Notes under the pieces: model-generated
Seen by the model: only the letters and a program-made list of their open reading frames with translations
Database searches by the model: none
Told to the model about the DNA's origin: nothing
Source of the DNA: Fidelibacterota bacterium
GTDB taxonomy: Bacteria > Fidelibacterota > UBA2242
Length of the DNA stretch: 64,000 nucleotides
Direction: 5' to 3'
Assembly (NCBI GenBank): GCA_049975265.1
Contig: JBNGDF010000006.1
Coordinates: 34,360-98,359, forward strand
Shown here: positions 20,375 to 52,167 of the stretch, piece after piece
Numbering within the stretch: the first letter of the stretch is position 1
Layout: each line of letters opens with the position of its first letter
Made by a program: the position numbers and the translations under genes

Positions 20375-21358
20375 TCATTTCGTGCGGGCTCGATTAAATG
20401 CAACAAATCCAGCCAGGGCTGTCTTGACTTCGGAATCGGGAAAGCGCTGCAGATATTGCATCGCCTGCTCCGAAATCTCATCCAACTTCTGCTCCGCATA
20501 ATGGATGCCGCCTTCGGAAACAGTCAACTCGCTGATCCGCTGAATGTCCGCCGGCTGCAATCCCCCGCGTATGGCAGCCCGGATGCGTTTTTGCTCCGCC
20601 CGACTCATCCTATTCAGAACATGCAGCAGCGGCAGGGTGATCAGATTGGACTTCAAATCCCGACCGATCGGTTTGCCGATTTTTTCCTCCCGGGCGGTAT
20701 AATCGAAAAGATCATCCTTGACCTGAAACGCCATGCCGAGATATTTCCCGAAATTCCATAGTGTTTCCGCTTCCTCCGCGGTGCCGTCTACCGACAATAC
20801 CCCTACTTTGCAGCTGCTGGCAAACAACGAAGCGGTTTTCAGCCAGATCATGCGGAAATAGAGCTCTTCATCCATCCCGGCGTTGGAACTTTTCGCCAGT
20901 TGCAAAATTTCACCGGAGCTCAGCGCCTCCGAGGTTTCCGACAGAAGCTGCAGTGCTTCGTAGTTTCTCAGGCGCAGCATATTACTAAGAGAGCGACTGA
21001 ACAGGAAATCACCCATCAGAACCGAAATTTTATTCTGCCAGATCGCATTGACCGAGGGCGCTCCCCGCCGGGTCATCGCTTCGTCAATGATATCATCATG
21101 AATCAAGGTCGCTGTATGGAGCAGCTCCACCAGACCGGCTGATATGATCGTAGCCTCCGTCGGCGTTCCGCACAATTTTGCCGACAGCAGCACCAGAATC
21201 GGTCGGAGCCGCTTGCTTTTTTGACTGAGAATATGGCGGGCAATCCGGCGAATCAACGCCACATCGGACTGCAGAGAGGCTGCAAATTCCCGCTGAAACC
21301 GGACAAATTCCGCCCGTACCGGACGAACCAACTCTTCTGTTTCCGACCTCTGTTTCAA
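20375..21358 (-). CDS. Polyprenyl diphosphate synthase
   Basis: KRLRP, LIHDDIID..RRG, FQVKDDLFD, GKPIGRD. Confidence 0.93.
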   Translation of the reverse strand: MKQRSETEELVRPVRAEFVRFQREFAASLQSDVALIRRIARHILSQKSKRLRPILVLLSAKLCGTPTEATIISAGLVELLHTATLIHDDIIDEAMTRRGAPSVNAIWQNKISVLMGDFLFSRSLSNMLRLRNYEALQLLSETSEALSSGEILQLAKSSNAGMDEELYFRMIWLKTASLFASSCKVGVLSVDGTAEEAETLWNFGKYLGMAFQVKDDLFDYTAREEKIGKPIGRDLKSNLITLPLLHVLNRMSRAEQKRIRAAIRGGLQPADIQRISELTVSEGGIHYAEQKLDEISEQAMQYLQRFPDSEVKTALAGFVAFNRARTK

Positions 21359-22137
21359 TCTTCCATACTCTCTGTTTCGGATTCTTTCTTTTCCTGATGC
21401 AGGGCTAACCGCGACACCAGGATACTAAATTCATAGAGAAAAAGCAGGGGTACTCCCATCAGCAACATCGAAACGGGATCGGGTGGCGTAATAAACGCCG
21501 CCACAATCAGAATAATGATAATTGCATAGCGCCAGGATTTGCGCAAAAAGGTCGGCGTAATCAGCCCCATTTTCGTCAACAAAAAAGACGCCACCGGCAT
21601 TAAGAACAGCAGACCCGAGGCTACCAGCAACTGCAACACAAATTTTGCATAATAATTAATCGATATGTTCTTCTCCACGTCCGGCGAACCAATTGCCGTT
21701 AGAAATTTAATGGCAAAGGGCGCTATCACATAGTATGCAAAGACAACCCCAAGCACAAAAAAAATCGACACGCTGATCACCAGCCAGGGTCCCCACCGTT
21801 TTTCATCGGGATAGAGTCCCGGCGCCACAAAAGCCCAGAACTGGTAGGCTAAAACCGGAATGGAGGCGGCAATACCAATCACCAGTGCGACTCCGAATTT
21901 CAGCATCAACATCCCCTGAACCTTCAAGACCTGGAGCTTCATATCCGGCTGCAACATTCTCGACGGCTTTAACAGCAACTCAATGAAAAAATCCGAAACC
22001 ACAAAACTGAGCACGGTAAACAGAATAATGCTGAACAGTATTTTCAACAAGCGCCAGCGCAGCTCCTCGAGATGATCCAGAAAGCCCATCTCTTTCATAT
22101 CGGTCTTTTCTGCCACCACTCCTTTTACCTGCATCAA
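21355..22137 (-). CDS. tatC: Twin-arginine translocase subunit TatC
   Basis: FLDHLEELRWR, FVAPGLYPDEK, AAFITPPD. Confidence 0.95.
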   Translation of the reverse strand: MMQVKGVVAEKTDMKEMGFLDHLEELRWRLLKILFSIILFTVLSFVVSDFFIELLLKPSRMLQPDMKLQVLKVQGMLMLKFGVALVIGIAASIPVLAYQFWAFVAPGLYPDEKRWGPWLVISVSIFFVLGVVFAYYVIAPFAIKFLTAIGSPDVEKNISINYYAKFVLQLLVASGLLFLMPVASFLLTKMGLITPTFLRKSWRYAIIIILIVAAFITPPDPVSMLLMGVPLLFLYEFSILVSRLALHQEKKESETESMED

Positions 22138-50200: not shown

Positions 50201-51046
50201 ATGGCACATATAATTGTTCCGCAGGCAGAGGCAATCTTGGATAAGGAGTTCAAGGTTTTAGATAAAGGATTCGTCCGGCTGGTGGATTATCTCGGCGGTG
50301 ACGAGCGCATCGTGCAAGCGGCTCGGGTTTCTTATGGTTCGGGAACAAAAACCGTGCGGCAGGACAAAGCTCTGATTGAATATCTGATCAGTCACGAACA
50401 TACCTCGCCCTTTGAGCAGGTTGTACTGACCTTCCACTGCAAAATGCCAATTTTTGTTGCTCGCCAATGGATTCGCCATCGCACCGCCCGACTGAACGAA
50501 ATCTCCGGTCGCTACAGCGTCATGGAAGATGAATTTTATGTTCCTGAAAAAGAGCAGATTCAATTCCAGAGCAAAGCCAATCGCCAGGGACGGGAAGCGG
50601 AAGAGGTTCCCGATGAGTTGAAAGCCAGAGTCCTCGATATCCTGGTAAGCGGTCAGAATCTCGCATATGAGGATTATCGGAAAATGATCGATAGTGACAT
50701 TGCCCGGGAGCTGGCGCGAATCAACCTGCCGCTGTCGCTCTACACCCAGTGGTACTGGCAGATCGATCTCAGCAACCTCTTCCACTTTCTGAAACTTCGG
50801 ATGGATTATCACGCCCAATGGGAAATCCGGCAATACGCCAACACAATGGCAACCATAACCCGGGCTGTCGCTCCGCTCGCTTATGAAGCCTTTGAAAAAC
50901 ATGTTCTGAACGCAGTTACATTTTCAGGCGTTGAGCTGGAGGCACTTAATCGCAAAATACAGGGCAGGGACCATCACCTCACCGGTATTCACAAAACCGA
51001 ATTCGAAGCCAAACTGGCAAAAATCCGGCGGCTGACCTCCAAATAA
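50201..51046 (+). CDS. thyX: FAD-dependent thymidylate synthase
   Basis: HTSPFE, ARQWIRHR, NEISGRY, ELARINLP, HAQWEIR. Confidence 0.96.
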   Translation: MAHIIVPQAEAILDKEFKVLDKGFVRLVDYLGGDERIVQAARVSYGSGTKTVRQDKALIEYLISHEHTSPFEQVVLTFHCKMPIFVARQWIRHRTARLNEISGRYSVMEDEFYVPEKEQIQFQSKANRQGREAEEVPDELKARVLDILVSGQNLAYEDYRKMIDSDIARELARINLPLSLYTQWYWQIDLSNLFHFLKLRMDYHAQWEIRQYANTMATITRAVAPLAYEAFEKHVLNAVTFSGVELEALNRKIQGRDHHLTGIHKTEFEAKLAKIRRLTSK

Positions 51047-51067
51047 TCCGTAATCCTTTTATGAATG

Positions 51068-51098
51068 AAAACCCCTCTCGCCAACGCTGAGAGGGGTT
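51068..51098 (-). terminator. Intrinsic terminator between the convergent thyX and small-peptide genes (possibly bidirectional)
   Basis: 10-bp perfect stem AACCCCTCTC/GAGAGGGGTT with 9-nt loop; short T tract on the minus strand. Confidence 0.7.
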
Positions 51099-51128
51099 CG
51101 CTCTAATTGAACTCGCCGGCACCCGGCT

Positions 51129-51323
51129 CTACCAACCGTGCGGCGGGGGCGGAGGTGGTGGATGTTGATGACCGTGACCATGAGCAGTCCACGGTTGAGG
51201 CTCCTGCGCCATCAATTTGAAACTCTGAATCGTGGGTACGGTAAACACCGTGGTCATTGTCAACTTTTTCAGAAAATTCCGGCGGGTGATGTTGCTATCC
51301 TGTTGATCTCTCTTCTCTTCCAT
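51129..51323 (-). CDS. 64-aa protein with a twin-arginine-type leader and a His/Pro-rich C-terminal peptide
   Basis: MEEKRDQQDSNITRRNFLKK...LMA|QEPQPWTAHGHGHQHPPPPPPPHGW; AGGA RBS, promoter and terminator all present. Confidence 0.75.
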   Translation of the reverse strand: MEEKRDQQDSNITRRNFLKKLTMTTVFTVPTIQSFKLMAQEPQPWTAHGHGHQHPPPPPPPHGW

Positions 51324-51348
51324 GGCTTCAATCCTGTTTAACAATTTG

Positions 51349-51377
51349 AATATACACTATTTTTGACTCCGAATCAA
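51349..51377 (-). promoter_or_regulatory. Putative sigma70 promoter of the small peptide gene
   Basis: TTGATT-N17-TATATT on the minus strand. Confidence 0.6.
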
Positions 51378-51417: not shown

Positions 51418-51450
51418 AAAACGGGAAATCCCGAAGCCCGGGACTTCCCG
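51418..51450 (-). terminator. Intrinsic terminator after the DUF350 gene
   Basis: Minus strand CGGGAAGTCCCG-GGCTT-CGGGATTTCCCG (12-bp stem with one G-U pair), then TTTT. Confidence 0.7.
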
Positions 51451-51477
51451 CAAATCAGTATCATCGTATGTAAATCG

Positions 51478-51711
51478 TCAAATGACCTTGTGTACCAGCA
51501 AGCCCACCATCAAAATAAGCGAGATGACGATCAAAGCAACACCGATATTGCCTTTTTTAATCTCCTCCCACTCATCAATCGAGGTGGACAGCCAGTCGAA
51601 AACCTTAATCGCCAGACCGACGCCAAAGGAAAATCCCAGCGCCGCAACGATCGCCCAGCCGATTCCTCTAAGATACATCATTAACGTATACGACCATGAA
51701 AAAGGATCCAT
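51478..51711 (-). CDS. DUF350 family small membrane protein
   Basis: Two TM helices around VFDWL..IDEWEEIKKGNIGVA; strong AAGGAGG RBS. Confidence 0.8.
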   Translation of the reverse strand: MDPFSWSYTLMMYLRGIGWAIVAALGFSFGVGLAIKVFDWLSTSIDEWEEIKKGNIGVALIVISLILMVGLLVHKVI

Positions 51712-51741: not shown

Positions 51742-52167
51742 CTATGCAAATTTTATCCTGCGTACAAATTCCGTCGAACTAATTTCGCCATTTGCAAATT
51801 TTACGATATCCTCCCGCTCGGCGGTGGCTACAATATTTTCCATGCCTTTATATTCTACATTCACCACGATTGTCACTTTCTCGACGGATTCTTTATGATA
51901 CACCATCGCCTTTCCGATGGCATAAAACCCAATCGTTAACACCCGGTCAAATTGATTTCGGGCACTCTTGACCGTCATGGTAAACTCTTTTTGCCCATCT
52001 GTGTGGGTAGTCATGTTCATCCGCTCATATTCAACCGGGACCTGATAGGCGGTACAAATCTGCTGGACCGACGAGTAAAACCGGGAATTCGCAAAGACAT
52101 TCAACGTAAAACCGGGAGAGACAATCAACACCATGAGCAGTAAAGAGACACGCTTCATATTTCCCAA
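51742..52167 (-). CDS. Exported hypothetical protein
   Basis: AGGAGG RBS 7 nt before TTG; signal peptide ...VFA|N. Confidence 0.7.
   Translation of the reverse strand: MGNMKRVSLLLMVLIVSPGFTLNVFANSRFYSSVQQICTAYQVPVEYERMNMTTHTDGQKEFTMTVKSARNQFDRVLTIGFYAIGKAMVYHKESVEKVTIVVNVEYKGMENIVATAEREDIVKFANGEISSTEFVRRIKFA

Follow-up and report, generated by a model that had tools for sequence, protein, structure and literature searches.

The stretch of DNA analysed here (the window, 64,000 nucleotides of the host genome, G000) carries on its minus strand a 64-codon gene at 51129..51323 that encodes a putative 64-aa precursor peptide and is supported by its open reading frame, by homologs and by purifying selection. 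A sequence scan places a sigma-70-type promoter, TTGATT-N17-TATATT, at 51349..51377 on the same strand, and a Shine-Dalgarno-like AGGA lies at 51332..51335, 8 nt before the ATG at 51323. The gene converges with thyX (50201..51046, plus strand), a conserved flank, and between the two lies a 10-bp hairpin (51066..51098; -22.9 kcal/mol in a 55-nt fold) that is likely a terminator serving both genes. Upstream, a second hairpin with a T-run (about 51418-51451, minus strand; -24.2 kcal/mol in a 60-nt fold) marks the end of a gene for a DUF350 membrane protein (51478..51711, minus strand). This protein is the conserved upstream flank, and comparison of the flanks made no functional tie between it and the peptide evident. 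A scan of the sequence for consensus terminators called neither hairpin. The first-pass annotation had described the promoter, the AGGA, the 64-codon frame and both hairpins, and we find all of them in place on the minus strand; likewise, the tatC gene that it had reported lies in the window at 21355..22137 (minus strand) and would supply the export machinery used by the leader. Beyond the DUF350 gene, window positions 51742-52167 encode a 141-aa signal-peptide-like protein that is conserved at this place across many host-family genomes; a Pfam search assigned it to no family above cut-off.

The exact promoter is found upstream of 18 of 29 homologs, compared with 0.1% of shuffled upstream regions; when up to one mismatch is allowed, 21 of the 29 have it. 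No maturation enzyme adjoins the peptide gene at any locus examined, extending what had been remarked for the present one, and no formate dehydrogenase gene occurs in the flanks examined. Four sequencing runs, probably of DNA, gave just short contigs, 90-95% alike.

The homolog search proposed in the first-pass annotation gave, with the query counted, 78 proteins that are 49-106 aa long and have conserved leaders and variable cores; their source names put the host in Candidatus Marinimicrobia/Neomarinimicrobiota. A genome survey with a profile built from 24 homologs gave strong matches in 33 of the 42 host-order genomes and in none of 259 other genomes of the phylum, where three matches were weak and fell within open frames of 458-751 aa. 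A broader profile, run on 401 genomes, recovered the same 33 together with four weak matches in long frames. Each of the 33 holds one copy, except for a tandem pair in G026, and profile searches of the host genome found no second copy there. At the G026 locus (L022; G026:C19:39539-39925) two peptide genes with differing cores share one promoter. Over 28 leader codons in 29 sequences, pN/pS was 0.29 in the coding frame and 0.44-2.4 in the other five frames. The peptide gene is real, short, order-wide and under purifying selection.

The first-pass annotation had reckoned with the gene being what is left of a longer Tat substrate. Such an origin, or a chance ORF, is hardly credible: the low-complexity tail would suit it, but the gene is short in every genome (all 33 genomic copies lie in open frames of 60-105 aa), the promoter is conserved and the selection is purifying. 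Protein searches found no form of the peptide with a longer C-terminus, and a search for longer proteins returned a single 147-aa record whose additional length lies upstream of the leader; the two longer homolog records are extended only there. More remote small proteins have the leader in common and a different core. Among sister peptides, P0090, P0093, P0095, P0096, P0100 and P0101 join the same leader to a core of repeated YPNQT units. One locus examined as context of the P0084 group of sister peptides held an ordinary 549-aa Tat-signal protein resembling ABC-transporter substrate-binding proteins, and was rejected. Searches with the peptide gave no match in Pfam, chance matches only in PDB sequences, and only unnamed clusters, at 0.89-0.90, in the ESM Atlas.

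The leader carries the twin-arginine motif TRRNFLK at residues 13-19 (51267..51287, minus strand), near the N-terminus as in the S/T-R-R-x-F-L-K motif of Tat substrates. R-R-x-F is kept in all 77 homologs that retain their N-terminus, and the peptide scores 17.8 bits against TIGR01409, whose cut-off is 16.7. All 42 genomes of the order have TatC. The h-region is moderately hydrophobic, again as in Tat substrates, with a best 12-residue Kyte-Doolittle mean of 1.36 (family range 1.11-2.04). It had been called only weakly hydrophobic, but its value falls inside the 1.24-2.23 spanned by seven other Tat-like signals of the host genome. The reported LMA|Q sequence is present, as are the five His and seven Pro, but homologs do not keep it as a cleavage site: none of 77 has a strict A-x-A, and 72 of 77 have a small-x-small site in the loose sense. 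The suggested pyroglutamate start of the core at Q40 finds no support, because column 40 is variable.

Inside the leader lies FTVPTIQSF (residues 27-35; 51219..51245, minus strand), a predicted docking motif for an RRE, on the strength of the motif and of a complex model. F-x-x-P-x-[IVM] is present in 78 of 78 homologs and is followed by [ST]-F-x-L. The h/c-region of ordinary signal peptides is free to vary. That a signal peptide should be conserved in such a sequence-specific way suggests that it binds a partner. The accessible text of PMC13381572 describes [Y/W]xxPx[L/V/I/A/F/Y] as the leader motif recognised by RREs, and by sequence the motif of the peptide appears to fit it. The core contains a second conserved motif, WTAH, at residues 45-48 (51180..51191, minus strand). 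[WY][TS][GA]H is found in 77 of 78 homologs, and position 46 is Thr in 77 and Ser in one. Thr46 is the sole conserved hydroxyl residue of the core and would be a candidate phospho-acceptor or the residue at -1 of a cleavage. It stands about 19 to 25 residues away from the leader F, depending on the homolog. The remainder (51132..51179, minus strand) is a variable His/Gly-rich stretch with a poly-Pro tail, P55-P61 at 51141-51161; a Pro run of at least four occurs in 69 of 78 homologs.

These features bear on the proposal that the peptide is exported by Tat unmodified and serves as a ligand of Ni, Cu or Zn, either in the periplasm or extracellularly. The invariant twin-arginine motif, an h-region in the range of other Tat signals of the host, the presence of TatC throughout the order and a median of five core His agree with it. 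However, it leaves the invariant F-x-x-P-x-I and W-T motifs unexplained, in a region where ordinary signal peptides vary freely, and the His count ranges from 0 to 7, with H48 the only invariant His. We regard it, and with it the secreted metal-binding peptide of the first-pass annotation, as unlikely; metal binding could coexist with a modified precursor.

In 15 of the 33 peptide-bearing genomes a cassette runs on the strand opposite to the peptide gene, which lies inside it or next to it; two gene orders occur, in 8 and 7 genomes. The cassette encodes a secreted beta-helix protein of 1300-1470 aa whose tail is FlgD/T9SS-like, and FN3-TPR lipoproteins; in these 15 relatives its genes sit between the thyX flank and the peptide gene or around the latter. 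The beta-helix protein, an ancestral neighbour of the peptide, matches the NosD model, which would suit metal binding, but this is a generic beta-helix match overlapping PF13229. The peptide could be a partner, anchor or regulator of the secreted protein and the two FN3-TPR lipoproteins: it adjoins the lipoproteins in 15 of the 16 genomes that have them at full length, in both gene orders, and peptide and lipoproteins were lost together in G015 and G150. Nevertheless, 18 of the 33 genomes, the host included and on several separate branches, keep an intact peptide where the cassette is missing, indicating that the cassette is dispensable for the peptide, and the co-occurrence of the two gives a Fisher p of 0.27. 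We consider such a partnership improbable, and where the large secreted protein is present it might display the modified peptide. At eight loci (L025, L026, L027, L030, L031, L041, L138 and L140) the peptide gene lies antisense between two FN3-TPR lipoprotein genes; in L031 and L041 its end overlaps the stop of the first of these by about 14-19 nt.

The host genome has three PqqD-like genes, on contigs C41, C7 and C2. Pfam, NCBIfam, PDB and fold searches identified on C41, unlinked to the peptide gene, a trio of an RRE/PqqD protein, an HprK-like kinase and a PRMT-fold methyltransferase (G000:C41:2100-4356). The locus also contains genes for a radical SAM/SPASM protein and a response regulator, followed by Wza, Wzc, small membrane proteins and a Wzy/O-ligase-like gene, after which come the RRE, kinase and methyltransferase genes; Wza, Wzc and Wzy_C genes stand directly upstream of the trio, and wzm/wzt-type genes follow it. 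The RRE (G000:C41:4078-4356) matches PF05402 at 41 bits, and its closest solved sequence is LppB, 9X8Z. The kinase matches TIGR04352 at E 8e-17, below the cut-off, and carries invariant G-K-T and D-E motifs. The methyltransferase (G000:C41:2100-3227, L193) has a full PRMT1/8-like fold, with E 1e-42 to PRMT8 and a Foldseek E of 5e-26 to yeast Hmt1. At what we take to be the PRMT double-E and THW positions of the alignment, the first Glu is invariant, the second is present in 3 of 12 sequences, and the other loop reads [NS][TS]WGQ; the protein has the PRMT fold but apparently not the full double-E/THW signature. Its C-terminal end is weakly RRE-like (hhalign probability 19%, E 0.001) and forms three helices in the model. 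The gene shares the range of the peptide: 28 of the 42 order genomes have it, and 0 of 259 others in the phylum sample. In L152 and L153 a candidate nucleotidyltransferase follows it. A plasmid tblastn search found no match for the peptide, the kinase or the methyltransferase.

Across 15 trio loci no short ORF was conserved besides the RRE and one membrane protein, and none resembling a precursor was conserved. When the host genome was filtered for short stand-alone ORFs that combine the motif with a ribosome-binding site, six passed, of which the peptide gene and one C7 precursor are credible; the peptide gene is the only credible one outside the C7 cluster. One or two small membrane proteins are encoded between wzc and the Wzy-like gene (G000:C41:5793-6641, L193), with an N-terminus rich in Arg, His and Lys and a conserved GSAVRxET-like motif. 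They are possible alternative substrates of the methyltransferase, and the trio could act instead on these Arg/His-rich proteins of its own operon, or on polysaccharide.

The C7 cluster (G000:C7:15659-21253, L194) comprises an S24/S26 peptidase, NTP_transf_5, an RRE, an HprK-like kinase and sugar-nucleotide genes. It is a complete cluster, outside Bacillota, that resembles those of linear polyphosphorylated peptides (LPP), known from lppAKBSDN of Paenibacillus alginolyticus (PMC13381572, 2026, accessible text). In clusters of this type (L194; L144-L150), YxxP precursors of 45-55 aa are interleaved with secreted proteins with FlgD/T9SS tails. Seven C7-type loci other than that of the host hold 11 YxxP precursors, whose leader ends in L-Q-T and nine of which end in PDEPPPP. 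The peptide might be an extra substrate of C7, whose precursors have a similar aromatic-x-x-P-x-[IV] leader, in most cases finish with PPPP, and adjoin FlgD-tail secreted proteins related to the ancestral neighbour of the peptide. Yet the cluster has YxxP precursors of its own, and RREs, according to the accessible part of PMC13381572, discriminate on the first aromatic residue. Furthermore, C7-type RREs occur in 18 of 42 genomes of the order and are not seen in 17 of the 33 that bear the peptide (Fisher p=0.26 for co-occurrence), and we find this assignment quite improbable. The C2 gene (G000:C2:34761-37120, L195) directly follows what is presumably an OPT-family oligopeptide transporter-like gene. 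Similar partial PqqD matches occur in most genomes of the order, and this OPT-linked gene was set aside as a partner because it is found also in genomes without the peptide.

A complex model of peptide residues 8-55 with the C41 RRE, one of the three PqqD-like proteins of the host and the one that modelling covered, scored 0.61, while the best of three controls scored 0.01. The mark for such models is reached by 116 of 157 solved pairs and by 2 of 215 mismatched pairs. Partner pLDDT was 58-60, and runs agreed in at least 82% of contacts. The modelled interface is formed by FTVPTIQSF, which pairs with the third beta-strand of the RRE: residues 30-35 of the peptide lie against 33-41 of the RRE, with further contacts to its residues 79 and 82. 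Given the solved RRE-leader complexes (6JX3, 5V1V, 9X8Z), the model shows likeness to them and not binding or which RRE is cognate.

Peptide and trio also co-occur. Among the 42 genomes, 27 have both, two the trio only, six the peptide only and seven neither (Fisher p=0.0016, with the trio scored present for any intact trio gene and with kin that are not independent in the test); G150 was counted as trio-less once its decay had been seen, and the table would otherwise read 27/3/6/6. Many order-specific genes may share this range. On a TatC tree of the 42 genomes, five of seven peptide-less lineages are also without the trio. Individual genomes show how the losses run. G150 lost the peptide from an intact junction, and its RRE is internally deleted and its kinase truncated. 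The G008 peptide has a nonsense codon directly after WTGH; in this genome, at 99% completeness, the rSAM gene is frameshifted, the Wzy-like gene is truncated and the trio gave no match. Peptide and trio decay together in G008 and G150. G018 retains an intact peptide ORF with a decayed promoter and no trio match. The contigs of G001, G004, G005 and G007 break off within the operon without reaching the trio, and the Wzy-like gene was not found either, so that absence of the trio is indistinguishable from an assembly gap. G003 is peptide-less, but its assembly breaks at both flanks. G020 (94% complete) has the trio and no peptide, with both usual flanks assembled, and is a counter-example as assembled.

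We consider it probable, with moderate confidence, that the peptide is an orphan precursor of the RiPP type that is bound by the C41 RRE, phosphorylated and methylated in trans, then exported by Tat and trimmed. The evidence thus favours the modification in trans put forward in the first-pass annotation, and the C41 trio is the likely machinery. The peptide would be made from its own promoter. The RRE is predicted by the model to bind residues 21-37, with FTVPTIQSF on its third beta-strand, and would hand the core to the kinase, for which Thr46 is a candidate site, and to the methyltransferase, whose target is probably not a core arginine. The docking site and the h/c-region of the Tat signal overlap, so release from the RRE would uncover the twin-arginine signal and Tat could then export the modified peptide. 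A housekeeping peptidase may cut off the leader, so that Tat and this enzyme would stand in for the ABC exporter and dedicated peptidase found in LPP clusters. The location of the trio suggests a role of the peptide in surface polysaccharide. A more specific version, doubtful in our view, holds that the leader is both RRE dock and Tat signal, that the RRE acts as a proofreading chaperone, hiding the signal until the core carries its phosphate and methyl groups, and that the exported peptide serves as primer or anchor for polysaccharide of the Wzy/ligase-Wzc-Wza system, giving a peptide-anchored capsule. In the accessible text of PMC13381572, LppK phosphorylates Ser and refuses Thr; this and the varying spacing between the leader F and Thr46 count against phosphorylation of Thr46.

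The resemblance to LPP, as far as the available text of PMC13381572 describes it, includes a discrete RRE, a kinase of the HprK-like type, an aromatic-x-x-P leader, a linear variable core and machinery placed inside capsular polysaccharide loci, as here with Wza, Wzc and Wzy_C directly upstream. In contrast to LPP as described there, the present host is Gram-negative and the precursor is unlinked rather than in the cluster; its FxxPxI...WT[GA]H pattern with a twin-arginine signal stands against the LPP leader YxxPxV...ETxxS, and the conserved core hydroxyl is Thr instead of Ser, no core Ser being conserved. The SpI-like leader peptidase is missing from the C41 locus and present only in the separate C7 cluster, and C41 has a PRMT-fold methyltransferase where LPP has an NTP transferase plus an exporter resembling MsbA. 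By analogy, the peptide would work like an LPP precursor, but it lacks the LPP peptidase, nucleotidyltransferase, exporter and leader consensus; peptide and trio may best be read as a Gram-negative variant of LPP. The accessible text of PMC7470986 mentions neither kinase nor nucleotidyltransferase.

PMC13381572 states, in the part available, that the role of LPP and related RRE-kinase cassettes in capsule loci is unknown. The peptide would be a named, order-wide, vertically inherited candidate substrate for a capsule-locus RRE-kinase cassette, with natural cases of joint loss, making the question of the cassette testable with four small genes in E. coli. If the preferred reading is true, it also provides a substrate for a bacterial PRMT-fold methyltransferase, a RiPP leader that doubles as a Tat signal, and a precursor encoded at a distance from its enzymes, out of reach of cluster-based mining. 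Literature searches on twin-arginine or Tat-signal RiPP precursors, on Marinimicrobia RiPP precursors and on HPr-rel-A found no paper on the peptide family, and searches on bacterial PRMT with RiPP or PqqD and on small Tat formate targets found nothing.

Other known systems share parts of this arrangement. TIGR02811, the formate dehydrogenase region TAT target, is a protein of about 66 aa in which a twin-arginine leader precedes a very short passenger, but the match of the peptide to it is confined to the leader and reaches 18.7 bits against a cut-off of 48.45. Lasso clusters of the paeninodin type and those bearing a methyltransferase likewise combine an RRE with an HprK-like kinase, and in L268-L270 the same trio stands beside a lasso cyclase; however, the families common to the trio loci include no cyclase or B2 peptidase, and the peptide core has no conserved Asp/Glu ring acceptor as lasso precursors do. 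Outside the lineage, eight Pseudomonadota loci were examined of 18 matches to the methyltransferase, its closest homologs. Three of the eight encode full-length homologs together with kinase and RRE in lasso-type clusters, and the two of these that were scanned contain a lasso cyclase-type gene and a nucleotidyltransferase gene. The other five homologs are without the C-terminal extension and have no RRE or kinase nearby. Presence in lasso-type clusters suggests that in those Pseudomonadota the trio is a peptide-tailoring module. The L268-L270 clusters, with methyltransferase, kinase, RRE and nucleotidyltransferase, lie beside polysaccharide genes.

HPr-rel-A (TIGR04352, HprK-related kinase A; TIGR04353, PqqD family chaperone) also pairs an RRE with an HprK-like kinase. 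The host proteins fall far below its cut-offs (kinase 61 against 200 bits, RRE 19 against 35), and its precursors, unlike the peptide, are of about 140-190 aa and lie inside the cassette. At the best 30 HprK_rel_A loci, from 65 genomes, a twin-arginine ORF with P-x-[IV]-x-T in its leader, a pattern tuned after a first look, lies within 1.5 kb in 22. Of these 22 ORFs, 21 are on the kinase strand, and control loci gave 0 of 28.
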